A program made the translations under genes and the position numbers. From contig OZ252213.1 of the NCBI GenBank assembly GCA_965249045.1, positions 1,399,904 to 1,463,903 of the forward strand: a stretch of 64,000 nt of DNA, in the 5' to 3' direction. Position 1 is the first letter of the stretch; every line of letters begins with the position of its first letter. Below the pieces are notes generated by a model that was not told the origin of the DNA, ran no database searches, and worked only from the letters and a program-made list of their open reading frames with translations. Below are positions 2,214 to 48,660 of this stretch, piece by piece. Origin of the DNA: Thermodesulfobacteriota bacterium (lineage in GTDB: Bacteria; Desulfobacterota_D; UBA1144; Nemesobacterales; Nemesobacteraceae).

Positions 2214-3113
2214 TCAGTACTGGTTTACTACATCCCTGTAATAATCTGGACGAAGGGAAGCTTCGTCTCTGGTCTTTAACACTTCTTTTATCTCTTTAAG
2301 AACTCTCTTTTTTTCCTCAGGGAATTTCGCCTTGACAGGAAGATAATTTGATATGTGGTTTGAATAGAAGTAACCGTTTGAAAGTTCCGTATTTTCAACT
2401 ATGGTCTCAAGTTCTTCTATCATCCGAAATTTGTCCGGAAGCTCAAAGAGGCCTTCCTGCCATTGCTTGTAAATCGGTGCTCCGGGACGAAGTTGAAGGG
2501 AAAGAGCTCCGACATATTCAGGATCACATTCCGTAAGAAGTTTTCCGGTAGCCAGTGCGTGCTCACTGCTCCTCTCCTTCCCGCCGATGCCGAGGAGGAC
2601 CATGACCGAATTCATTATCCCCGAGGCTTTCAGTTTTCTTGAGGCTTCAACGGTCTCGGCAAAATTCGCTCCCTTCTCTATTCTCTCGAGTACTACATCA
2701 TCTCCGCTTTCAAAACCTATGTAAACCATGCTGAGACCATTCTCTCGAAGACGCGTGAGGTCTTCAATCGATTTTCTGAGTATGTCGCCCACGTTTGCGT
2801 ACACGGTAATTCTCTCAAGATCAGGGGTTTTTTCATGAAGATAATCCATTATTTCCATAAGTTTCGCCGTAGAAAGCACGAGTGCGTTACCATCGGCTAT
2901 AAAAACCCTTCGCTCAAGTGATCCCCTTTTCGCCGCGGTATCGATAATCTCTCTGATTTCGCCCATAGGTCTTACCCTGAATTTCTGGGTTTCCTTTCTG
3001 TACATGGCGCAATATGTGCATTTGTTGTGGGAACAGCCGACAGTGGCTTGCAGAATAAAACTTTTATGTTCGCTTGGGGGACGGAAAAAGGGAGTTACGT
3101 ATTCAATCATCAC
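2214..3113 (-). CDS. Radical SAM domain protein of unknown specific function
   Basis: 299 aa with a canonical CX3CX2C motif near the N-terminus (CSHNKCTYC) and a GFESGDD...IEKG motif. Its stop lies 21 bp upstream of the start of the luciferase-like gene, so the two are probably co-transcribed. Confidence 0.85.
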   Translation of the reverse strand: MMIEYVTPFFRPPSEHKSFILQATVGCSHNKCTYCAMYRKETQKFRVRPMGEIREIIDTAAKRGSLERRVFIADGNALVLSTAKLMEIMDYLHEKTPDLERITVYANVGDILRKSIEDLTRLRENGLSMVYIGFESGDDVVLERIEKGANFAETVEASRKLKASGIMNSVMVLLGIGGKERSSEHALATGKLLTECDPEYVGALSLQLRPGAPIYKQWQEGLFELPDKFRMIEELETIVENTELSNGYFYSNHISNYLPVKAKFPEEKKRVLKEIKEVLKTRDEASLRPDYYRDVVNQY

Positions 3114-3306
3114 CCTAAGAACTTAACAAAATTTTGAGGTCTGTTCAACAAGACTTTGCAATGGCGTAAAGCATAGGTTATTCTTGCGCCATAATGTTTG
3201 ACCTCGAACCACACGAAAAAGAAGGCCTGAAGTACATACTTGGTGTACCGATACTAATCGGACTAATAATGGTCATCGCTTCTCTGACGCACATCGTCCT
3301 TGCTCC

Positions 3307-3780
3307 CTAGCTTGTGCCCCAGCGGATTATCCGGAGGATGAGTTCGTGGATTTCGATCTCTACTCCACTATTATCCCTAAAAAGATATCCCCCGTTTTTC
3401 TTCTCTTCCCAAGTAACTCCGAGAAGTTTCAGATTTTTCTTCGGTTTTTGGGGATCGGGATCGATTTTCCTTCCGACAAAGGTAACGGTGTTTTCGCCCC
3501 CGTAAAGTACCATAATCAGTTTTGAAGTTCCAAAAAGGAGCAAAAAACCCGGAGTTTTTGCTTCGGTACCGAAAACCGCCTGCATAAAACCCGGAGGCGG
3601 AGCAATCACGCTGATTGTGTCTCGGCCGTATTCTTTGTTTAATGACTCCACATATGTTTCGAAGCTACGGCAGAGAAAATCCGAAGCTCTCTTGCTTTCC
3701 CCGCATGTTTCATCCGAGTCGACTGAGATTTTCTCTTTTTCGTAAAACTCAGCAATCCACGGCTGTTTTTTCATTTCCAC
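3307..3780 (-). CDS. Hypothetical protein (157 aa)
   Basis: Long ORF with coding-like composition. It lies upstream of, and on the same strand as, the radical SAM/oxidoreductase pair. I recognise no family. Confidence 0.45.
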   Translation of the reverse strand: MEMKKQPWIAEFYEKEKISVDSDETCGESKRASDFLCRSFETYVESLNKEYGRDTISVIAPPPGFMQAVFGTEAKTPGFLLLFGTSKLIMVLYGGENTVTFVGRKIDPDPQKPKKNLKLLGVTWEEKKNGGYLFRDNSGVEIEIHELILRIIRWGTS

Positions 3781-4045
3781 GGCACATCACCTTAACCTTC
3801 AGCTTTCAATCTGGAGTCTGAAGACAAGAAAGCTTCATCGTTCTCAGCTCTGAAAAACCATCCGCAAACCGATAGATTTTCTCATTTTTCACTGAAAACG
3901 CTTCAAATTCTTCGCGTAATATAATAATATATGCAACAAGGGGAAACAAAAGATAGACAAACTCTACGGAAACACCGCAGGCCTCACCAGAAGCGACCTG
4001 AAGAACATACTTAGAATATACAAGAGGAAAATTCCTCAGGACCGC

Positions 4046-22020: not shown

Positions 22021-22094
22021 GAGCCGTTAGCTCAGCTTGGTAGAGCAACTGCCTTTTAAGCAGTGGGTCACAGGTTCGAATCCTGTACGGCTCA
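22021..22094 (+). tRNA. tRNA-Lys (anticodon UUU)
   Basis: Manual cloverleaf: acceptor gagccgt/acggctc, D arm gctc-agcttggta-gagc, anticodon arm actgc-cttttaa-gcagt, T arm acagg-ttcgaat-cctgt, discriminator A. There is no encoded CCA. Confidence 0.9.
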
Positions 22095-22104
22095 TTTTTC
22101 CGTC

Positions 22105-22182
22105 GTCCCCGTCGTCTAGTCAGGCCTAGGACATCGGCCTTTCACGCCGGTAACAGGGGTTCAAATCCCCTCGGGGACGCCA
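22105..22182 (+). tRNA. tRNA-Glu (anticodon UUC), with encoded CCA
   Basis: Acceptor gtccccg/cggggac, anticodon arm tcggc-ctttcac-gccgg, T arm agggg-ttcaaat-cccct, discriminator G followed by CCA. Confidence 0.85.
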
Positions 22183-23556
22183 GAGAAAAATTCCCAATAG
22201 CAGTTTGAAAAACCATAGTGAAAACAGCTGGTTAAAATTTTTGGTTCAAGCAGTTTCTATCTAACTTCCGACTTTCCCGTCCCCACAACCTTTGGGAGCA
22301 AGGTGCTTCCCTTTTGGAATTTCCTTCAGAAGTGTGTGTGTTGGAGTGCAAGATTAGGTTCTCTCGCCATTGTCACGTAAGTTCTCTTCTCGGGAGAAAA
22401 GTAAAAAGAAAAGATGTATATCTTTCTTTGTTCTATTCTATCGCGGCTTCTTCACCCATTATTGCGGTTATGTAGTACTTGTAAGTAAAGATGACACACC
22501 CAACAACCAAGAACATCGCGGTTGCCAAGTACATGCTGAAGAAGCCGTAATCGCGCACTATCAGTCCAAGAATAATAGCGGAAGAGTTTATTCCTGTTCC
22601 GTAGGCCATATTAAATATGCCCACTGCGGTTCCCCTCTCGCCGGCATGCGCTCTGTCAATAACCATTGTATTTATCGTGGGATAAGCAAATCCGTAGCCT
22701 ATACTAAATACCAGAGAGAACAGAATCAATTGTGAATAGATGCTCACGAAGAAAGCTATGGGCATCGAGACAACTATCATAAAGAGTGCTGGCAGAGCGA
22801 TCTTTCTTCTCTGTATAATATCCGTGAACCTTCCCCCAAAAACCCTGATTAATATTGCCACCACGGCATAGATAACAAAAAAAATTCCCATTTGAAGGCC
22901 CTGTTCTTTGAGATGAATGTGGAAGAAATGGACTAAAGACCCGAGCCCCACGGCGATCATCAGGTTCATCAGGAAAAGTACGCTGAACCTGTCGGAAAAC
23001 AAAACATTAAGGAATCCTTGGAAAAGCTGGCCCCTGAGTACGCCGCGGGTTGTTTTCGCTGAGAAGAAGCAAAGTATAAACGCAAACAGCTGGAAGCTAG
23101 AAGCGTAGAGAAAAAACGTATGGTAACCGAATTTTTCAATAAGAATTTCTCCGAAGAAGGGCCCGATGGAGAAACAGGCTATCATCGTAACACCGAAGGT
23201 GGTAAGACAAGAATGCCTTATGTTCCTAGGAATGGTATACGAAACGGCTGTAGCCGCGGAAGTAAAGAAAAGGCCGAATGCAACGCCCTGCAAAAGCCTC
23301 AAAGCGTACATCATTGCGTTAATATCCGATACAAACAGGTAAAGAATGGAGAACAAAAACATTAGGGCTGAACCCAAGAGCATGAAAATCCTCTGCCCGT
23401 AGCGGTCTATAAGAAAACCGGAAACCAGAGCGGTACTTACTGACGCTATACCGAAAGTCCCCATCACGTAACCAATAGAGGCCGTGTCACCTCCTAGGTC
23501 TTTTATGAAAAGTGGCAGCAGGAAGAAGGAGGTGAAACCACATTGGAAGAAAAAAT

Positions 23557-25094
23557 GAGTTATAACTAAATCTGGTGTTCAGAGTGATTTGAAAAAAAGC
23601 GGCGTATCCGGTTGATTTGTTGTTTGAGTTCAAAAAAACAACCAATAGGAGGATACGCCACTATGGGCAAGAAGGATAAAGTTTTTGACCTCAAAGGTCA
23701 AAAAGAGACAATCGATTCATTGAACGGACTGTTCAGCAAATTTGTCCACTCAGAAAGACAGAGAGCGGTTGCCAAAGAATTGAAGCTTGACGGACACATG
23801 GGAAACGGGCTTCAAGGCCCCGGGGCGGTTGCTGACCCCCTCAGCGAGATGTTGAGAGAGGGCGCCCGGTTTCTTCTCGGCACAGCCGTGCGGTGCGAGC
23901 TCGAAGAGTTCCTCAAGCAATACGAGGATCGTCTTCTGGACAATGGGAGAGTCGCGGTTGTGCGCAACGGATACCTGCCCGAGCGGGAGATACAGACCGG
24001 CATTGGTCCCGTGAAGGTACGAGTTCCCAAGGTGAGGTCCAAGGACGGGGAACCCGTCACTTTCCACTCGGTATTGGTGCCTCCCTATGTGCGCAAGGCC
24101 GCGACGCTTGAGGCGGCTTTGCCTTGGCTGTATCTGAAGGGAGTATCCACCGGGGAGATGGGGCCTGCGCTAGAGGCGCTGATCGGGCCTGAGGCCAGGG
24201 GGCTTTCGCAAAGCACGGTGTCGCGGCTCAAAAAACAGTGGGCCGAGCAATACGGTACCTGGAGGACCGGGGATTTGAGCGAGGGTCGCTGGGTGTATAT
24301 ATGGGTAGACGGCATATACAGCAACATACGAGGAGATAACCCTCGGTTGTGCGTGCTGGTGGTCATAGGGGTAAACGAACGTGGGGAGAAGCACTTCCTG
24401 GCTATCGAAGACGGTGTGCGAGAATCAAAGCAGAGCTGGCGTGAGGTATTGGTGAATCTCAAAGGGCGTGGGATGAAGGAAGCCCCGAAGCTTGCTGTTG
24501 GAGATGGAGCGCTTGGGTTTTGGCCCGCTCTTGAAGAGGTTTACGGAGAAACCCGTCAGCAGCGCTGCTGGGTGCACAAAACGATGAACGTACTCAACTA
24601 CCTGCCCAAGTCCTCCCAGCCCAAGGCCAAGAGGCAGCTGCATGATATCTGGCAGGCGGAGACAAAGGAAGACGCGGAGAGGGCCTTTGATCTGTTCTTG
24701 AAGACATATGAAGACAAGTACCCGAGAGCGGCACAGTGCCTTGTGAAGGACAGGGAGGAGTTGCTGGCGTTTTACGACTTTCCCGCCAACCACTGGCGGA
24801 GCATTCGGACAACGAACCCGATTGAGTCGGCCTTCGGCACAATACGGCATCGGACCAGACGCTGCAAAGGCTGTCTGAGTTCCGAGGGCATGTTGCACAT
24901 GATATTCAAGCTGGGGATGTGCGCGGAGAAGAACTGGCGCAAAATTAACGGGTTTGATTTCCTGGCGAAAGTGATAACGGGAGTGAAGTTCAGAGATGGG
25001 ATCGAAGAGACAACAGAGAAAACAGCGGAGGTGACGACAGACGATCAGGTCGCCGCTTGATCATGTCCTTGAACACCAGATTTGCATATATCTC
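23557..25094 (+). mobile_element. IS256-family insertion sequence, copy 1 (1538 bp), flanked by an 8-bp target-site duplication GAAAAAAT
   Basis: It matches copy 2 at 44666..46203 across the transposase ORF and at both ends. The terminal inverted repeats are imperfect and about 32 bp long (gagttataactaaatctggtgttca... versus the reverse complement gagatatatgcaaatctggtgttca...). The duplication GAAAAAAT lies at 23549-23556 and 25095-25102. Confidence 0.9.
23612..25060 (+). CDS. IS256-family (Mutator-type) transposase
   Basis: 482 aa with the C-terminal family signature HWRSIRTTNPIESAFGTIRHRTR. The protein is identical to the copy at 44700..46148. Confidence 0.9.
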   Translation: MICCLSSKKQPIGGYATMGKKDKVFDLKGQKETIDSLNGLFSKFVHSERQRAVAKELKLDGHMGNGLQGPGAVADPLSEMLREGARFLLGTAVRCELEEFLKQYEDRLLDNGRVAVVRNGYLPEREIQTGIGPVKVRVPKVRSKDGEPVTFHSVLVPPYVRKAATLEAALPWLYLKGVSTGEMGPALEALIGPEARGLSQSTVSRLKKQWAEQYGTWRTGDLSEGRWVYIWVDGIYSNIRGDNPRLCVLVVIGVNERGEKHFLAIEDGVRESKQSWREVLVNLKGRGMKEAPKLAVGDGALGFWPALEEVYGETRQQRCWVHKTMNVLNYLPKSSQPKAKRQLHDIWQAETKEDAERAFDLFLKTYEDKYPRAAQCLVKDREELLAFYDFPANHWRSIRTTNPIESAFGTIRHRTRRCKGCLSSEGMLHMIFKLGMCAEKNWRKINGFDFLAKVITGVKFRDGIEETTEKTAEVTTDDQVAA

Positions 25095-25615
25095 GAAAAA
25101 ATTTCCCAGAGTGATTAGAGAAAAATCTTTATATTCTCTTATGAACTCCATATTGAGGCCTATTCTAACGAAAGAAAATTCAAGCCTGAATACTACACGA
25201 TTTTATATTTTGTGTTGATCTTTACAGTCAAATTTTCTCATATAAAAACGCTCCACAATATAACACAGACTTGCCCGAACCATGAGGTTGGCCATTAGGA
25301 TAAATATTTTTCGTCATCCCACTCATCTTGACTAAGTTTCTATTGCAGGGGAATGACATGAGCACGGCTTGAAGGAATGAAAGCGATTTTTATGATCTCT
25401 CAATATACTCTAGAGAAAGTTGCTATGAGTGGTAAACGCAAGGAAATGTTACGGAAAAATCTGTGGCCTGAACAGTACTTTCAGTGATCATGGGCTACGC
25501 ATACCCGTAAACCTTTGATCAGGGGGAAGTAATACCATTAACAAATGGCAACGCTACGTCCATATCCACGCTCGGCCACTAGCCTGCTCCGCTGAGTTGA
25601 AATCGGCTGCTAACC

Positions 25616-40766: not shown

Positions 40767-41846
40767 TTAGTGAATTAATTCTTTTATTTTATTTAAGTAT
40801 TTCTCGATCAAAGGTTCTTTTCTTCCGTTGTAGCTTCCGGCAAATTCCATTAAAGCTTCCTTCTGTTTTCTGGTGAGTTTCTGCGGTATTACCACTTTTA
40901 CCACAACGTATTGATCGCCAAGACTCCCGGATTCCACGTCCACAAGCCCCTTTCCTCTAAGCTTGAAGGTTTGTTCCGGCTGCGTTCCGGCGGGGATTTT
41001 CATCTTGGTGGTACCCTTTAGAATCGGAACGTCTACCTCATCTCCAAGAGCCGCCTGAGTAAAGCTTATCGGAAACTCGCACACGATGTCGTTTCCGTCC
41101 CGTCTGAAAATGGGGTGTTCCCTTACCATTACCTGTATGTAGAGATCTCCCGGAGGACCTCCACGTGCTCCAGGTTCCCCTTCCCCCCTTATGACAAGCC
41201 TCATTCCACTGGAAATCCCGGCGGGTATGTTGACCTTTACCGCCTTCTCGGTGTATGAAAGGCCGGATCCCCGGCAACTTCTACAGGGATTCGTTATAAT
41301 TTTTCCGCTTCCCCCACACGAAGGGCAACCCTGGCTTATTGAAAACGGACCTTGGGAAAAAGCAACCGATCCTCTTCCTCCGCAACGATCACAAACTGAC
41401 TCTCCTCCAACCGCAGCTCCGGAACCAGAGCAATCATCACAGAGTTTTCTTTTCCTGATTTTTACTTCTCTCTGAGTCCCAAACGCAGCTTCATCAAAAT
41501 CCACTTCAAGGTTGTACTGCAGAGTCTCTCCTTGCCGGCCCCTGCTCCTGCCCATTCCTCCCGTGAAAACGTCATCGAAGAGATCGCCGAAAATATCGCT
41601 GAACCCCGAAAAACCGCCCATGCCGTCACCCGACATCTGGCCGAAACTGTCATAACGAGCCCTCTTATCCCTGTCGTTAAGCACTTGGTAGGCCTCGTTT
41701 ATTTCCTTGAACTTTTCTTCGGCATTCTTATCCTCGGGGTTGCGGTCCGGATGGTACTTGAAGGCAAGATCCTTGTAGGAACTTTTTATATCTTCGGGGG
41801 AAGCGTTTTTCTCAACAGCAAGTATTTCGTAGTAGTTTTTAGCCAT
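40767..41846 (-). CDS. dnaJ: Chaperone DnaJ (full-length, with zinc-finger repeats)
   Basis: J domain with HPD, a G/F region and four CxxCxGxG repeats (CDDCSGSG, CDRCGGRG, CPSCGGSG, CRSCRGSG). Confidence 0.95.
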   Translation of the reverse strand: MAKNYYEILAVEKNASPEDIKSSYKDLAFKYHPDRNPEDKNAEEKFKEINEAYQVLNDRDKRARYDSFGQMSGDGMGGFSGFSDIFGDLFDDVFTGGMGRSRGRQGETLQYNLEVDFDEAAFGTQREVKIRKRKLCDDCSGSGAAVGGESVCDRCGGRGSVAFSQGPFSISQGCPSCGGSGKIITNPCRSCRGSGLSYTEKAVKVNIPAGISSGMRLVIRGEGEPGARGGPPGDLYIQVMVREHPIFRRDGNDIVCEFPISFTQAALGDEVDVPILKGTTKMKIPAGTQPEQTFKLRGKGLVDVESGSLGDQYVVVKVVIPQKLTRKQKEALMEFAGSYNGRKEPLIEKYLNKIKELIH

Positions 41847-41873
41847 TTTAGAATTAGGGAGCGGGAGTTTTCG

Positions 41874-42476
41874 TCAGTCTTTTTCTTCAGAATCTTCCTC
41901 GGAGGTTTTTTCAGCACCTTGAGACACGGATACCATTGAGGGTCTTAGCAATCTTCCGTTAAGAAGATAGCCTTTCTGGACCTCTGAGATTATGGTGCCA
42001 CTTTCGTAAGTTTCCGAGTGCTCCTTGTAAACAGCTTCGTGGTAACTTGGGTCAAAACCAGTTCCCTCGCTTGAGTCTATCGGTGTAACGCCGAAGTTTC
42101 CTAGACCCGCCAGAAATTGCGCGTGAACAAGCTTTATTCCATCAAGAAAAGCTACGAAGTCTGTTTTTTCGCCAAGCAATTCTCCAGAAAGCTCAATAGC
42201 TCTTTCAATGTTGTCAAGAACGAAAAGCAGCTCCTTTAACTTCTGCGCGTTTCCGAAATCAAGTATTTCCTGCTTTTCCCTCGCAAGTCTTTTTTTGTAG
42301 TTATCAAAATCGGCCGAAAGCCTTAAATACTTCTCCCTCAAGGCTTCGAGTTCAGCGAAGGAGTCTTCCTCTATCTCTTTTTCTTGTCCGTCAGTACCGG
42401 GAGGTTCGGGCTCTTGCAGATCCTCAGCGCCGTTTTTCTCTTTCTCTTCAATTTCCGTTATCGTGTTCTCACTCAT
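41874..42476 (-). CDS. grpE: Nucleotide exchange factor GrpE
   Basis: 200 aa with an acidic N-terminus, a coiled coil and a GrpE C-terminal domain. Confidence 0.9.
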   Translation of the reverse strand: MSENTITEIEEKEKNGAEDLQEPEPPGTDGQEKEIEEDSFAELEALREKYLRLSADFDNYKKRLAREKQEILDFGNAQKLKELLFVLDNIERAIELSGELLGEKTDFVAFLDGIKLVHAQFLAGLGNFGVTPIDSSEGTGFDPSYHEAVYKEHSETYESGTIISEVQKGYLLNGRLLRPSMVSVSQGAEKTSEEDSEEKD

Positions 42477-43506
42477 TCCGTAATTCTCCGTTAACCCTCT
42501 TTGTGACCATCTTCGCCGTGTAGTTCACAAGCGGGATGATTCTTGAATAGTCCATTCTAGAGGGGCCGAACACACCTAAACTCCCGTAGCTGTTTCCTTT
42601 GCAGTAAGGTGCCGCCACGAGGCTGAAGCCGCGAGGCATCCCTTTTTCTGAACCTACAAAAACCTTCGAGCTACCATCTTTTACAACCGACTTCAGAAGG
42701 CTGGAAAGAAGTTCCTGATCCTCGAGTATCTCGATTATGGTCTTATAGAGACCGGAATCTCCGAAATCAAGAGACTCAATGACGAAAACCTTTCCTTTTA
42801 TGAATATCCCCGCCTTTCTCTCCCTCTCGAAAAGCTCACTGCTTATTCTAAGCACTTTTTCAAGGATTTCACTGTATTCGGTAGTGGTTCTCTTTATTTT
42901 CTCAAGCACAACCTTGCGCACCTGGTCAATCGTAAGGCCCAGAATCAGTTGATTAAGATAACTCCCTATCCTCTCGACCTGGGAATCCCGAATGGGTTTG
43001 GCAAGCTTTATGTAAGTTTTTTCCGTAAGCCCACCTTCAAAGACCAGAAACAGGAGACATTCCCTGTTTCCCATTTTCAGAAGCTTTGCGGACTTGACTC
43101 TGAGAGTGTTTCTCTGGGGAAGCATCGCGAGACCTGCAAGCTTCGTAAAGTCGGAAAGTATTGAACTTGTAGCGCTTATCACGTGATCAAGCGTGCCGTC
43201 AATCTCTTCATATTTATTCTCAAGGAACCGCAGGCCGACATCCGGTGAGTTTTCCACGTGGAGAATGTTCTCTACGTAATAATTTATTCCCTTCTCCGTG
43301 GGAAGCCTGCCGGAAGAAATATGACTTTGGGTGAGAAAACCCGCTTCCATAAGCGAATTAAGCTCCTGGCGGACCGTGGCCGGAGACCATTTTATATCGT
43401 ATTTCGATATAAGGGTCGAAGAACCGATGGGGCTTCCGGTCTCAATAAAATGATCTACTACAAAGCCCAGAAAAGCCTTGTTTCTTGGAGAGATTGGCTG
43501 TGTCAT
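42469..43506 (-). CDS. hrcA: Heat-inducible transcription repressor HrcA
   Basis: 345 aa with a winged-helix N-terminus (GSPIGSSTLISKY) and HrcA C-domains. It overlaps the grpE start by 8 nt. Confidence 0.9.
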   Translation of the reverse strand: MTQPISPRNKAFLGFVVDHFIETGSPIGSSTLISKYDIKWSPATVRQELNSLMEAGFLTQSHISSGRLPTEKGINYYVENILHVENSPDVGLRFLENKYEEIDGTLDHVISATSSILSDFTKLAGLAMLPQRNTLRVKSAKLLKMGNRECLLFLVFEGGLTEKTYIKLAKPIRDSQVERIGSYLNQLILGLTIDQVRKVVLEKIKRTTTEYSEILEKVLRISSELFERERKAGIFIKGKVFVIESLDFGDSGLYKTIIEILEDQELLSSLLKSVVKDGSSKVFVGSEKGMPRGFSLVAAPYCKGNSYGSLGVFGPSRMDYSRIIPLVNYTAKMVTKRVNGELRNE

Positions 43507-43516
43507 CTATTTCTGA

Positions 43517-43545
43517 AATATAATTTCCGCCTACTGTATTGTCAA
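43517..43545 (-). promoter_or_regulatory. Sigma70-like promoter immediately upstream of hrcA (TTGACA, 17-nt spacer, TATATT). It implies a near-leaderless transcript.
   Basis: Reverse complement of 43517-43545. The -10 ends 10 nt before the hrcA ATG and there is no SD. No CIRCE-like inverted repeat is visible in the 97 bp between hrcA and the IS end. Confidence 0.45.
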
Positions 43546-44665
43546 CGGAATCAAAAGTAAATTCTGCACTTACCAAACTGTCATACAGAATCTCAAATTA
43601 ACTAGTTCCGCTAATTAGTGTCTGCCAGAGAAGCTCTTAACTTCCTGAAATAAAACGAAATAATTATGATTTTCCATGGTGAAGATTGTCCATATACGGT
43701 ACAATTATATCCGAACGATCAACACGCGGGCCTTTTACAAACAATCTTCGGGGGTTTTCCATGAGAAAGATAAAAGAACTGCAGCTTAGTCTCGGCGAAG
43801 TTCCGATCGAGAAGATACGCTTCAATCCCAAGTCAAGAGACGACATTCCCGCCGTACTCAGAGGACTTCAGTACATTTACGTAAACACCAAGACGCGCGA
43901 GGAACTGTTTTCGCTTCTTGAGAAGGAGTTTCTTGCGGAAGTGAATTTTGACGTCGGCCGTCCGGGGATGGACATATGGAGGGTGGTGGTTCTTGGGGTG
44001 TTGAAGCAGGGGCTTGGCTGTGATTACGACCGGCTTCACGAGCTTGCAAACAATCACAGCTCGCTACGCCGGATGCTGGGTCACAGCGACTATTCGGGAG
44101 AGTACGAATACGAGTTGCAGACTATAATGGACAACGTGTTTTTGCTTGAGCCGGAGATGCTCAACAAGATAGGGGAGATAGTGGTGAGGAGCGGTCACGA
44201 GGTCTCAAAAAAAAAGCCTGGAGAAGGGTTGCGGGGGCGGTGTGACTCGTTTCCCGTCAAAACCGACGTTGAATATCCCACGGACGTGAGATTGCTCTGG
44301 GACGCTGTGAGGAGTCTTGTCAAGGCGGTGGCTTCGGCTGCGCGGAGGAACGGGCTTTGGGGGTGGCGTCAGGAAGGCCATCTTCTTGGGAAGGGGAAGA
44401 AGCTGTTTACCGTGGTAAGCACTTCGCGCAGACGCAGGAAGGCTGGGGATGAGGGGGTAAAAGAGTATTTGAGGTTTAGCGAGAACATGGTGAAGCGGGC
44501 GGAGAAGACTCTTTTGGAGCTGGTGAGTGTGAAAGGGCCGCGGTGGTGCATTGACAATATTAACCAGTGGCTGCGTCACTCCCGCAGGCAGATAGACCAG
44601 GTGGAGAGGCGTTTGGTTAAAGGGGAAGCGATACCGCGGGGGGAGAAGGTGTTTTCGGTGTTTGA

Positions 44666-46203
44666 GAGATATATGCAAATCTGGTGTTCAAGGACATGAT
44701 CAAGCGGCGACCTGATCGTCTGTCGTCACCTCCGCTGTTTTCTCTGTTGTCTCTTCGATCCCATCTCTGAACTTCACTCCCGTTATCACTTTCGCCAGGA
44801 AATCAAACCCGTTAATTTTGCGCCAGTTCTTCTCCGCGCACATCCCCAGCTTGAATATCATGTGCAACATGCCCTCGGAACTCAGACAGCCTTTGCAGCG
44901 TCTGGTCCGATGCCGTATTGTGCCGAAGGCCGACTCAATCGGGTTCGTTGTCCGAATGCTCCGCCAGTGGTTGGCGGGAAAGTCGTAAAACGCCAGCAAC
45001 TCCTCCCTGTCCTTCACAAGGCACTGTGCCGCTCTCGGGTACTTGTCTTCATATGTCTTCAAGAACAGATCAAAGGCCCTCTCCGCGTCTTCCTTTGTCT
45101 CCGCCTGCCAGATATCATGCAGCTGCCTCTTGGCCTTGGGCTGGGAGGACTTGGGCAGGTAGTTGAGTACGTTCATCGTTTTGTGCACCCAGCAGCGCTG
45201 CTGACGGGTTTCTCCGTAAACCTCTTCAAGAGCGGGCCAAAACCCAAGCGCTCCATCTCCAACAGCAAGCTTCGGGGCTTCCTTCATCCCACGCCCTTTG
45301 AGATTCACCAATACCTCACGCCAGCTCTGCTTTGATTCTCGCACACCGTCTTCGATAGCCAGGAAGTGCTTCTCCCCACGTTCGTTTACCCCTATGACCA
45401 CCAGCACGCACAACCGAGGGTTATCTCCTCGTATGTTGCTGTATATGCCGTCTACCCATATATACACCCAGCGACCCTCGCTCAAATCCCCGGTCCTCCA
45501 GGTACCGTATTGCTCGGCCCACTGTTTTTTGAGCCGCGACACCGTGCTTTGCGAAAGCCCCCTGGCCTCAGGCCCGATCAGCGCCTCTAGCGCAGGCCCC
45601 ATCTCCCCGGTGGATACTCCCTTCAGATACAGCCAAGGCAAAGCCGCCTCAAGCGTCGCGGCCTTGCGCACATAGGGAGGCACCAATACCGAGTGGAAAG
45701 TGACGGGTTCCCCGTCCTTGGACCTCACCTTGGGAACTCGTACCTTCACGGGACCAATGCCGGTCTGTATCTCCCGCTCGGGCAGGTATCCGTTGCGCAC
45801 AACCGCGACTCTCCCATTGTCCAGAAGACGATCCTCGTATTGCTTGAGGAACTCTTCGAGCTCGCACCGCACGGCTGTGCCGAGAAGAAACCGGGCGCCC
45901 TCTCTCAACATCTCGCTGAGGGGGTCAGCAACCGCCCCGGGGCCTTGAAGCCCGTTTCCCATGTGTCCGTCAAGCTTCAATTCTTTGGCAACCGCTCTCT
46001 GTCTTTCTGAGTGGACAAATTTGCTGAACAGTCCGTTCAATGAATCGATTGTCTCTTTTTGACCTTTGAGGTCAAAAACTTTATCCTTCTTGCCCATAGT
46101 GGCGTATCCTCCTATTGGTTGTTTTTTTGAACTCAAACAACAAATCAACCGGATACGCCGCTTTTTTTCAAATCACTCTGAACACCAGATTTAGTTATAA
46201 CTC
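44666..46203 (-). mobile_element. IS256-family insertion sequence, copy 2 (1538 bp, inverted relative to copy 1), flanked by a 9-bp target-site duplication GGTGTTTGA
   Basis: It shares the same ends as copy 1. The duplication ggtgtttga lies at 44657-44665 and 46204-46212. Confidence 0.9.
44700..46148 (-). CDS. IS256-family (Mutator-type) transposase, identical to 23612..25060
   Basis: The 482-aa translation is identical to the copy 1 transposase. Confidence 0.9.
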   Translation of the reverse strand: MICCLSSKKQPIGGYATMGKKDKVFDLKGQKETIDSLNGLFSKFVHSERQRAVAKELKLDGHMGNGLQGPGAVADPLSEMLREGARFLLGTAVRCELEEFLKQYEDRLLDNGRVAVVRNGYLPEREIQTGIGPVKVRVPKVRSKDGEPVTFHSVLVPPYVRKAATLEAALPWLYLKGVSTGEMGPALEALIGPEARGLSQSTVSRLKKQWAEQYGTWRTGDLSEGRWVYIWVDGIYSNIRGDNPRLCVLVVIGVNERGEKHFLAIEDGVRESKQSWREVLVNLKGRGMKEAPKLAVGDGALGFWPALEEVYGETRQQRCWVHKTMNVLNYLPKSSQPKAKRQLHDIWQAETKEDAERAFDLFLKTYEDKYPRAAQCLVKDREELLAFYDFPANHWRSIRTTNPIESAFGTIRHRTRRCKGCLSSEGMLHMIFKLGMCAEKNWRKINGFDFLAKVITGVKFRDGIEETTEKTAEVTTDDQVAA

Positions 46204-47229
46204 GGTGTTTGAGGAACACACTCGGTGGATAGCGAAGGGCAAGGCGGGAGTGCCGGTTGAGCTTGGGGTTCCGGTGTGCGTGATAGAGGATCAGCACCAG
46301 TTCATACTGAACCACAGGGTGATGTGGAGAGAAGAGGACGTGGATGTGGCGGTACCTTTTATTGAAGAGACCATTGAGAAGTATCCCGGGCTTTTGGCTT
46401 GCAGTTTTGACCGAGGCGCCTGGAGTCCCGGCAACAAGAGCAGGCTTGATGGGATGCTTGAGAGCAGCGTCTTGGCGAAGAAGGGCGGGAAGAGCAAGGC
46501 TGACCGGGAGAGGGAAGAGAGCGAAGAGTTTGTTAAGGGGCGCAGGCGGCACCCCGCCGTGGAGTCGGCGATAAACGCCTTGAACCACAAGGGACTTGGC
46601 AGGGTAAGGGATCATGGGGTGCGGGGGTTCGCCCGGTGCGTTGCTTTGTCGGTGCCGTCGGCCAATGTTCACAGGCTCGGGAAGCTTGTGATGAAGAAAG
46701 AAGAGGAAAGAAGGCGACGAAAACTGAAGCCCAGGTTCCTTGCAGCTGCTTGACCTGCCTGGTTACAGCTTGATTATCCGTTAGAAAAGTAACGAAAACA
46801 GTCCGGTTGCGTTCGATTAAGGTCAGGCCTGCGCTGTTTTTGCAATAATCGCCGCTTTTTATTGCTCTGCGGGGGTTCAAAGCGGTTGCTGCTTGCGATG
46901 TCGCGGAATAATCGCCAAAATAATTGTGAAAAAAGGCTTTTTCTGACAGACACTAATTAAGCGGAATTGCCGGACAATGCTCTTTACAAGCCAAAAACTC
47001 TCACTGTTATTGTTGCTTAAATAGCTTTCTTCGATACCGCGAGAGCAAACCTACCTAGGACACAACTTTCATGGCAAACTCTCGCGAGTTCATATGGAAA
47101 GAATCTTCAGAGCTCAACAATGTTTTAACTGCTATAATTCTTGAAGTAATTCTTGCAGCTGAATGGTCCACATATTTAAAGTTGCAACAATCTTTGACGA
47201 TACGCCGATTATAAATATAATTACCCGAA

Positions 47230-48660
47230 ATGGAAAAATTTGATCTCACAGTTATAGGATCCGGTCCCGGTGGATACATATCGGCAATAAGGGCCGCACA
47301 GATGGGGATGAAAGTTGCCGTCGTGGAGCGGGACAAGCCCGGGGGAGTATGCCTTAACTGGGGATGCATACCTTCAAAGGCAATTCTCAAATGCGCCGAG
47401 ATGTACTCGCATTTTCTTGACTCGGAGAGTTACGGAATTACCCACAAGGGGCTCTCCTTTGACTACTCAGAAGTAATAAAAAAAAGCAGAAAAGCTTCGT
47501 CTTCTCTTAATAGAGGTGTCGCCGGACTTTTCAAGAAAAACAATATCACTCTTATAAGCGGCACGGGAAGGCTCATATCAAAGCACGGAATTTCCGTTAC
47601 TGGGAAGGATTCACAAGATATAGAGAGCGAACGGATACTCCTTGCCACAGGTTCTGTCCCAAGAACGCTGCCCGGCCTTAAAATCGACGGAAAAGTGGTG
47701 ATGACAAGTGACGAGGCGATAATGCACACCGAGGTTCCCCGCTCAGTCGTAATAATAGGAGGTGGTTACATCGGAATGGAGTTTGCCTACGTCTACAACT
47801 CTTTTGGAAGCAAGGTAACCATAGTGGAGATGGAAAAACAGATCTTGCAGGGAGCCGACGAGGAAGTAGCGAAAGAGGCAAAGAAAATCTTCACGAAGCA
47901 GGGAATGACAATTCTTACGGAGACTGTGTACAAATCCCTTAAGAAAACCTCAAGTTCTGCAACCGTGACGGTGGAAAGCATGGTTTCTGGAGAACAGACA
48001 ACACTAAAAGCCGATATGGTCTTGGTATCGGTCGGAAGAAAAGCCATCGCAAACGCCGCGCCGACCTCTTTTGCCTTCTATGGTGCTGGTGACAGCATGG
48101 GTCTTGAAGATGTGGGCGTTGAACTTGATGAAAGAGGATTTATAAAAACAGATGAGGACTACATGACCACCTGTGCCAATATCTACGCGATCGGAGATGT
48201 AATCGGAGGTCCCCTGCTCGCGCACAAGGCTTCGGAGGAGGGAGTCGTCGCGGTTGAAAGAATGAAGGGAATGAACTCCAAAGTACATTACGACTCAATT
48301 CCCGGATGCGTTTACTGTCAGCCGGAAGTGGCTATGATCGGCCTTACGGAAAAACAGGCAAAAGACCAAGGTTATGACGTAGATATAGGAAAATTCCCTT
48401 TCAAGGCTGCGGGGAAAGCTGTCGCGGTCGGAGAAACGGACGGCTTTGTGAAAATGGTTTTCGACTCGAAAACAAAGGAGCTTCTCGGAAGTCACATAAT
48501 AGGCCACGGAGCAACTGAGATGATTGCAGAAATCGGAGTGGCGAAAACCTTAGAGACAACATCGTACGAAATAGCCACTACCCAGCACGCCCACCCAACT
48601 CTCTCGGAAGCCGTAATGGAAGCAGCTCTTGACGCGCTTGGAAGAGTAAGAAACTTCTGA
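47230..48660 (+). CDS. lpdA: Dihydrolipoyl dehydrogenase
   Basis: FAD motif GSGPGGY, the redox-active disulfide CLNWGCIPSK, an NAD fold and a C-terminal dimerisation domain with HPT. Confidence 0.9.
   Translation: MEKFDLTVIGSGPGGYISAIRAAQMGMKVAVVERDKPGGVCLNWGCIPSKAILKCAEMYSHFLDSESYGITHKGLSFDYSEVIKKSRKASSSLNRGVAGLFKKNNITLISGTGRLISKHGISVTGKDSQDIESERILLATGSVPRTLPGLKIDGKVVMTSDEAIMHTEVPRSVVIIGGGYIGMEFAYVYNSFGSKVTIVEMEKQILQGADEEVAKEAKKIFTKQGMTILTETVYKSLKKTSSSATVTVESMVSGEQTTLKADMVLVSVGRKAIANAAPTSFAFYGAGDSMGLEDVGVELDERGFIKTDEDYMTTCANIYAIGDVIGGPLLAHKASEEGVVAVERMKGMNSKVHYDSIPGCVYCQPEVAMIGLTEKQAKDQGYDVDIGKFPFKAAGKAVAVGETDGFVKMVFDSKTKELLGSHIIGHGATEMIAEIGVAKTLETTSYEIATTQHAHPTLSEAVMEAALDALGRVRNF

Follow-up and report, generated by a model that had tools for sequence, protein, structure and literature searches.

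Relation to described insertion sequences

Nested insertions, in which one insertion sequence (IS) has entered another, are common in IS-rich bacterial genomes. The 64,000-nt stretch analysed here (hereafter the window; positions 1,399,904 to 1,463,903 of contig OZ252213.1, assembly GCA_965249045.1, from a Thermodesulfobacteriota bacterium) holds such a nest between the genes hrcA and lpd, where an IS256-family element lies within the transposase gene of an ISNCY-family element, and we are almost certain that this arrangement arose through two successive and independent transpositions. It resembles the nested insertions of other IS-rich bacteria in its disrupted transposase gene, in the intact ends of the interrupted element and in the presumed non-autonomy of that element. 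The nested insertion is real but ordinary, as IS-in-IS arrangements are commonplace; each element is an ordinary member of a known IS family, and the locus reveals no new transposition biology. The empty site, the intact IS and the IS-in-IS are all found in closely related genomes, a natural series from which the succession of events can be read cleanly.

The outer element agrees with the ISNCY family (NCBIfam NF033593) in several respects: its one transposase gene fits the family hidden Markov model (HMM) from end to end, it is about 1.8 kb long, its terminal inverted repeats are short and imperfect, it duplicates 6 bp of target, and many copies stand at different sites; its relatives match the IS4/IS5-type DDE_Tnp_1 domain. 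It differs in its strong preference for TA[A/T][T/G]TA targets, in being broken by IS256 in the window, and in its distance from the annotated plasmid relatives (called ISNCY family transposase), which are at most 42% identical. At that distance it is a separate and probably unnamed ISNCY-family element, which by its size and duplication length probably falls in the ISDol1-like group of ISfinder. The inner element shows no difference in kind from the IS256 family, of which it is a distinct member; it has 25-nt imperfect inverted repeats, a Mutator/IS256-type transposase of about 465 aa, and duplications of 8 or 9 bp, and it has multiplied in a burst-like way, as is classic for IS256.

An IS256-family element within an ISNCY-family transposase gene

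The components of the nest are as follows.

43618..46953, plus strand: outer ISNCY-family IS, 3336 bp as found, 1789 bp without the IS256 element and one copy of its target duplication
43761..44665, plus strand: ISNCY transposase gene, 5' part, codons 1-301 and 2 nt of codon 302, holding D162
44657..44665, unstranded: 9-bp target duplication GGTGTTTGA, left copy, single in sister strain L004
44666..46203, minus strand: inner IS256-family IS, copy 2, 1538 bp, termini GAG...CTC
44666..44690, unstranded: IS256 terminal inverted repeat, arm 1, 25 nt, 84% complementary to 46179-46203
44700..46097, minus strand: IS256-family transposase gene, 465 aa from the ATG, stop codon at 44700-44702
46179..46203, unstranded: IS256 terminal inverted repeat, arm 2, from the repeat search
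46204..46212, unstranded: 9-bp target duplication GGTGTTTGA, right copy, single in L004
46213..46753, plus strand: ISNCY transposase gene, 3' part, last nt of codon 302 to the stop, holding D368 and E419

The plus-strand open reading frame (ORF) at 43686..44699, which reads MRKIKELQ... from the ATG at 43761, runs into the IS256 element and ends ...GEKVFSVFERYMQIWCSRT / ...RYMQIWCSRT with a stop at 44699, while the plus-strand ORF at 46115..46753 includes ...SVFEEHTRWIAKG.... An earlier note on this DNA, made from the letters alone, had taken the two ORFs for halves of one DDE transposase broken by an IS256 copy nested in a larger IS of ISNCY/IS4-like type with about 1.8 kb of its own sequence. 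Our data support that interpretation, and the checks suggested along with it all came out in its favour; corrections were needed for its outer boundaries and inverted repeats alone. When 44666..46212 is deleted, a single uninterrupted ORF of 481 aa runs from 43761 to the stop at 46753, with no base lost at the join. For annotation this means that the fragments 43761-44699 and 46213-46753 are halves of one ISNCY transposase gene, presumably dead, rather than two genes, and that the true limits of the outer element are 43618-46953.

The 9-bp duplication GGTGTTTGA stands, as had been read, directly on either side of the IS256 element (44657-44665 and 46204-46212). The residues repeated in the two ORFs, attributed to this duplication as V-F-E, are really S-V-F-E and derive from 12 identical nucleotides (TCGGTGTTTGAG), which comprise the duplication together with the first and last IS256 bases, these by chance completing the flanking codons.

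The rebuilt 481-aa protein matches the equivalog model NF033593 (transpos_ISNCY_1) with 433 bits against a cutoff of 325, the alignment pairing protein residues 22-458 with profile positions 2-443 of 444; the next-best NCBIfam model, IS5_1, reached 64 bits (cutoff 275). A search of 5.8 billion proteins returned an intact 481-aa protein that is 95% identical and thousands of full-length proteins at 54-69% identity. Intact 481-aa relatives share 94-95% identity with the rebuilt transposase, whose 90% cluster contains 25 sequence variants. A 312-aa truncated product, which is what gene callers see, is publicly recorded (P0134); in an exact look-up in the contig index, neither the 312-aa truncated transposase nor the 524-aa PEPCK ORF had a record.

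The transposase of the inner element is encoded by a minus-strand ORF of 465 or 482 aa (44700..46097 or 44700..46148) and belongs to the IS256 family by both Pfam PF00872 (Transposase_mut, 226 bits, cutoff 21) and NCBIfam NF033543 (transpos_IS256, 322 bits, cutoff 150). At least 15 contigs are on record with an identical transposase. At ten other places the IS256 element has exactly these ends, and the target duplication is 9 bp at eight of these (seven distinct sites, as L008 and L013 share one), 8 bp at one and absent at one; 9 bp is therefore the usual duplication of this element.

Three stages of the site in related genomes

The order of events can be read from strains that retain earlier states of the same site. 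Two short features of the host sequence border the outer element at this site, its target duplication and a hairpin around it.

43606..43612, unstranded: host hairpin, left arm TTCCGCT, outside the IS, its last T being the first base of the duplication
43612..43617, unstranded: 6-bp target duplication TAATTA of the outer IS, left copy, the empty sites having a single TAATTA
46954..46959, unstranded: TAATTA, right copy, defined from the empty sites and other copies
46960..46966, unstranded: host hairpin, right arm AGCGGAA, outside the IS

A look-up with the ThiS protein encoded nearby led to nine more genomes, where hrcA and lpd lie just 382-383 bp apart (one of the nine, L023, has an assembly gap in this spacer). 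These empty sites read ...TTCCGCTAATTAAGCGGAA... with one TAATTA, and match the window without 43618-46959 base for base through ...AACTAGTTCCGCTAATTAAGCGGAATTGCC.... The exact HrcA sequence of the window in turn led to L004 (circular, 1.85 Mb), which carries hrcA, an intact 481-aa gene and lpd in this order. The DNA of L004 agrees with that of the window to the left and right of the IS256 element with a 12-nt overlap at the join, no IS256 is present there, and the unoccupied target GGTGTTTGAGGAACAC is read as ...TTTTCGGTGTTTGAGGAACAC.... An uninterrupted outer IS with a single IS256 target thus stands at the very site at which the window has the nest, and L004, L021 and L030 all hold the intact outer IS there with flanks 100% identical to those of the window. 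From the empty spacers, the strain with the intact IS and the window itself it follows that the site was first empty, then received the ISNCY-family element and finally the IS256-family element.

In the first event the 1789-bp ISNCY-family element, with its single transposase of 481 aa, presumably of DDE type, and with imperfect repeats of about 17 nt at its ends, entered the AT-rich loop of the host hairpin in the spacer of the divergent hrcA and lpd genes, leaving the 6-bp TAATTA duplication. Later, and in one sub-lineage, the 1538-bp IS256-family element entered codon 302 of its transposase gene in the opposite orientation, leaving the 9-bp duplication GGTGTTTGA. The ISNCY gene was thereby split, so that its 5' part gives a truncated product of 312 aa and its 3' remnant is untranslated. 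As the predicted catalytic residue D162 is parted from D368 and E419, also predicted to be catalytic, the outer element is presumably unable to make its own transposase. Since both of its ends are intact, mobilization in trans is conceivable, and a transposase supplied by another copy could in principle move it.

The predicted catalytic core of the outer transposase

When the rebuilt protein is aligned with 21 relatives, D162 (RCDSF), D368 (SFDRG) and E419 (VESAI) are invariant, and the IS256 insertion point at codon 302 falls between the first of these residues and the other two. The AlphaFold model of the rebuilt transposase (pLDDT 73) shows core strands in the order beta1-beta5, with strand beta1 at residues 157-167, followed by a long helical insert and by beta2 and beta3 from residue 306, so that according to this model the insertion would lie between beta1 and beta2 of the presumed RNase-H-like core. 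A search of the PDB with the family profile gave noise only (ClpB, E ~0.5).

Host hairpin and the neighbouring genes

The genes on either side of the outer element are transcribed away from it.

42469..43506, minus strand: hrcA (Pfam HrcA), first gene of hrcA-grpE-dnaJ, 111 bp from the outer IS
47230..48660, plus strand: lpd, a dihydrolipoyl-dehydrogenase-like gene, 276 bp from the end of the IS

The gap of 111 bp replaces the 100 bp that had been given for the distance from the outer IS to the hrcA start codon (43506). Without the insertion the two arms listed above form a 19-nt palindrome, TTCCGCT-AATTA-AGCGGAA, with a fold of -7.4 kcal/mol (z = -3.4). It is uninterrupted in the nine IS-free genomes, lies about 60 bp upstream of the promoter-like site of hrcA, and is halved exactly by the ISNCY element. 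The hairpin is conserved in the IS-free genomes wherever the region is assembled (spacers L022-L031), and in six of these genomes the right arm reads AGTGGAA, for which a G-U pair would persist in plus-strand RNA.

This placement raises the question of whether the palindrome is an operator of hrcA-grpE-dnaJ or of lpd, in which case the IS-bearing lineage would have rewired its heat-shock or lpd control. We consider this unlikely, together with the separate proposal, taken up below, that the IS copies undergo rapid gene conversion. Finding a 7-bp stem in 381 bp of spacer is only a mild surprise (chance of about 0.1 by a rough estimate), and there is no second copy of the palindrome within the window, so a regulon motif is unsupported. 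The promoter-like sites of hrcA (43545..43517, minus strand) and lpd (47194..47221, plus strand), each matching at 11 of 12 positions, lie outside the IS and are retained. An outward promoter-like site (TGGACA-18-CATAAT, 10 of 12) is present in the left end of the ISNCY element at 43692..43663 on the minus strand, directed toward hrcA. No CIRCE operator (TTAGCACTC-N9-GAGTGCTAA, up to 3 mismatches) was found in the 64-kb window despite the presence of hrcA-grpE-dnaJ (operon 40767-43506). A regulatory effect of the insertion on hrcA or lpd is thus possible, though unsupported. An Rfam scan of the whole window recovered two tRNAs only, so the untranslated IS ends contain no known RNA.

The sigma-70-like hexamer pairs of hrcA and lpd end about 10 nt before the annotated ATG, which suggests very short or leaderless mRNAs, or mis-set start codons.

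Points against the nested insertion and the possibility of assembly error

Several observations do not sit easily with the history outlined above, and count against it. Over the roughly 13 kb shared between the window and its sister strain L004, every one of the 25 differences falls within the 1789-bp ISNCY element (at 43634-44547 and 46552-46656, with 17 of them in 44297-44547), while about 11 kb of flanking sequence is identical; this is an approximately 40-fold excess of differences inside the IS between strains that are otherwise identical. They divide about evenly between changes private to the window copy and changes private to the sister copy. The window's outer copy is therefore not simply the sister copy with an IS256 element added, and something further has acted on it. 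Nor is any intact gene on record for the exact rebuilt protein, which itself reached no Pfam model at E<=0.1, so that the link to DDE_Tnp_1 comes only through its relatives, 9 of the 21 aligned sequences matching PF01609 or PF13751 (the IS4-like part of the label given in the earlier note is borne out to this extent, the ISNCY part by the family HMM). Foldseek comparison of the AlphaFold model with the PDB gave only weak matches to (retroviral-)integrase cores (E>=0.15), and because this similarity is weak we infer, rather than observe, the catalytic triad.

The excess of differences is likely due to gene conversion between diverged IS copies or to consensus polishing with reads from several copies. 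A diversity-generating retroelement was considered as the source of the 44297-44547 cluster and rejected, as the changes are not adenine-specific.

Polishing with reads from multiple copies would also fit an explanation in which the nest itself is an artefact, a repeat mis-join during metagenome assembly having placed the IS256 element inside the ISNCY element. Both elements are indeed multi-copy repeats in these assemblies, and the odd divergence of the ISNCY copy from its sister could have such an origin. A mis-join, however, yields no perfect 9-bp target duplication at the exact termini of the IS; the junctions share their GAG...CTC ends and their duplication length with independent insertions elsewhere, and the halves of the outer gene rejoin in frame without the loss of a base. 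We consequently give an assembly error very little credence and retain the insertion of the IS256-family element into a resident ISNCY-family element as the origin of the nest.

Ends of the outer element

The true ends of the outer element carry imperfect inverted repeats.

43618..43634, plus strand: left terminal inverted repeat, GTGTCTGCCAGAGAAGC
46936..46953, minus strand: right terminal inverted repeat, GTGTCTGTCAGAAAAAGC, with one mismatch and an extra A relative to the left

Within the 64 kb the GTGTCTGCCAGAGAAGC/GTGTCTGTCAGAAAAAGC motif occurs just at these two ends (0.06 expected by chance), and this terminal-motif search found no other ISNCY copy in the window. Intact copies of the outer element were sought elsewhere, as the earlier note had proposed, and were taken from a Thermodesulfobacteriota metagenome-assembled genome (L001) and from metagenome contigs (L002, L003, L032-L037). 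It is these copies that define the ends and the duplication length. All complete ones among the eight other copies are exactly 1789 bp long, both terminal repeats are kept in every copy compared, and homology to the window is confined to the interval from GTGT(C/T)TGCCAGAG... through ...CTGACAGACAC, with flanks that are unrelated between copies. The element stands at no fewer than nine distinct flanks (L001-L003, L032-L037) and is thus mobile. The 6-bp duplications at six of the other copies are TAATTA (two), TAAGTA (two), AAAATA (one) and TATATA (one); with the window included TAATTA occurs at three sites, and the target preference is strong.

These comparisons leave practically no room for the limits first proposed, 43606 and 46966, with inverted repeats of about 24 bp (43606-43629 and 46942-46966) and no visible duplication. 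An inverted repeat that reaches these positions does exist (21 nt, 90%, in the repeat search), but TTCCGCTAATTAAGCGGAA is intact at this site in the nine IS-free genomes and the eight other copies are common only from GTGT... to ...CAC, which places the proposed limits 12-13 nt too far out on each side. The longer repeat is a composite of 12 nt of real repeat, the self-complementary TAATTA and the hairpin arms; host sequence had therefore been misread as part of a 24-bp inverted repeat.

In one of the ISNCY copies, L035, the flanks are unmatched, with AAAATA on the left and TAGGTA on the right; as L001 has an identical left flank, recombination between two ISNCY copies is indicated. Another, the intact copy in L002, has a different IS256-family element 94 bp upstream (1234-2763), which shares 78% DNA identity with the IS256 element of the window and also adjoins a Cas9 gene.

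A second IS256 copy and the interval between the two

The window contains a further copy of the IS256-family element.

23557..25094, plus strand: IS256-family copy 1, with the 8-bp duplication GAAAAAAT at 23549-23556 and 25095-25102

By direct comparison copy 2 (44666-46203) is the exact reverse complement of copy 1 (1538 bp each), and the repeat search likewise paired 44661-46210 with the reverse complement of 23550-25099. Copy 1 breaks a major facilitator superfamily (MFS) transporter gene around codons 17-19, whose counterpart in the sister strain (L017) is intact (390 aa), the 8-bp target being empty there and copy 1 absent. The absence of both window copies from a near-identical strain, together with identical copies at at least ten sites, shows that this IS256 element is currently active in the population. 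The MFS transporter gene is fragmented in several other strains as well, and two adjacent tRNA genes (22021-22179, plus strand) lie upstream of the region containing this gene and copy 1.

Identical, inverted copies bracketing 19.5 kb could suggest a composite transposon that moved this interval as one unit, but each copy has its own matching duplication (8 bp, GAAAAAAT, and 9 bp, GGTGTTTGA), the interval and its outer flanks are collinear with a sister strain in which both sites are empty, and the 19.5 kb between the copies is not inverted, so that we dismiss a composite origin and regard the two copies as separate insertions.

Many of the IS256 insertion sites in L005-L013 adjoin defence-type genes (ThsB-TIR, OLD-like TOPRIM, SIR2, and MmeI and AlwI restriction-modification). 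In L010, the sister-strain chromosome, the IS256 copy at 2395-3932 has no target duplication and its flanks, AGTTCTG and CAGAATT, are mutually inverted, possibly as a result of a rearrangement between IS256 copies. In L014 (1235-4320), from the same population, an IS256 copy is nested within another copy of the same IS256 element.

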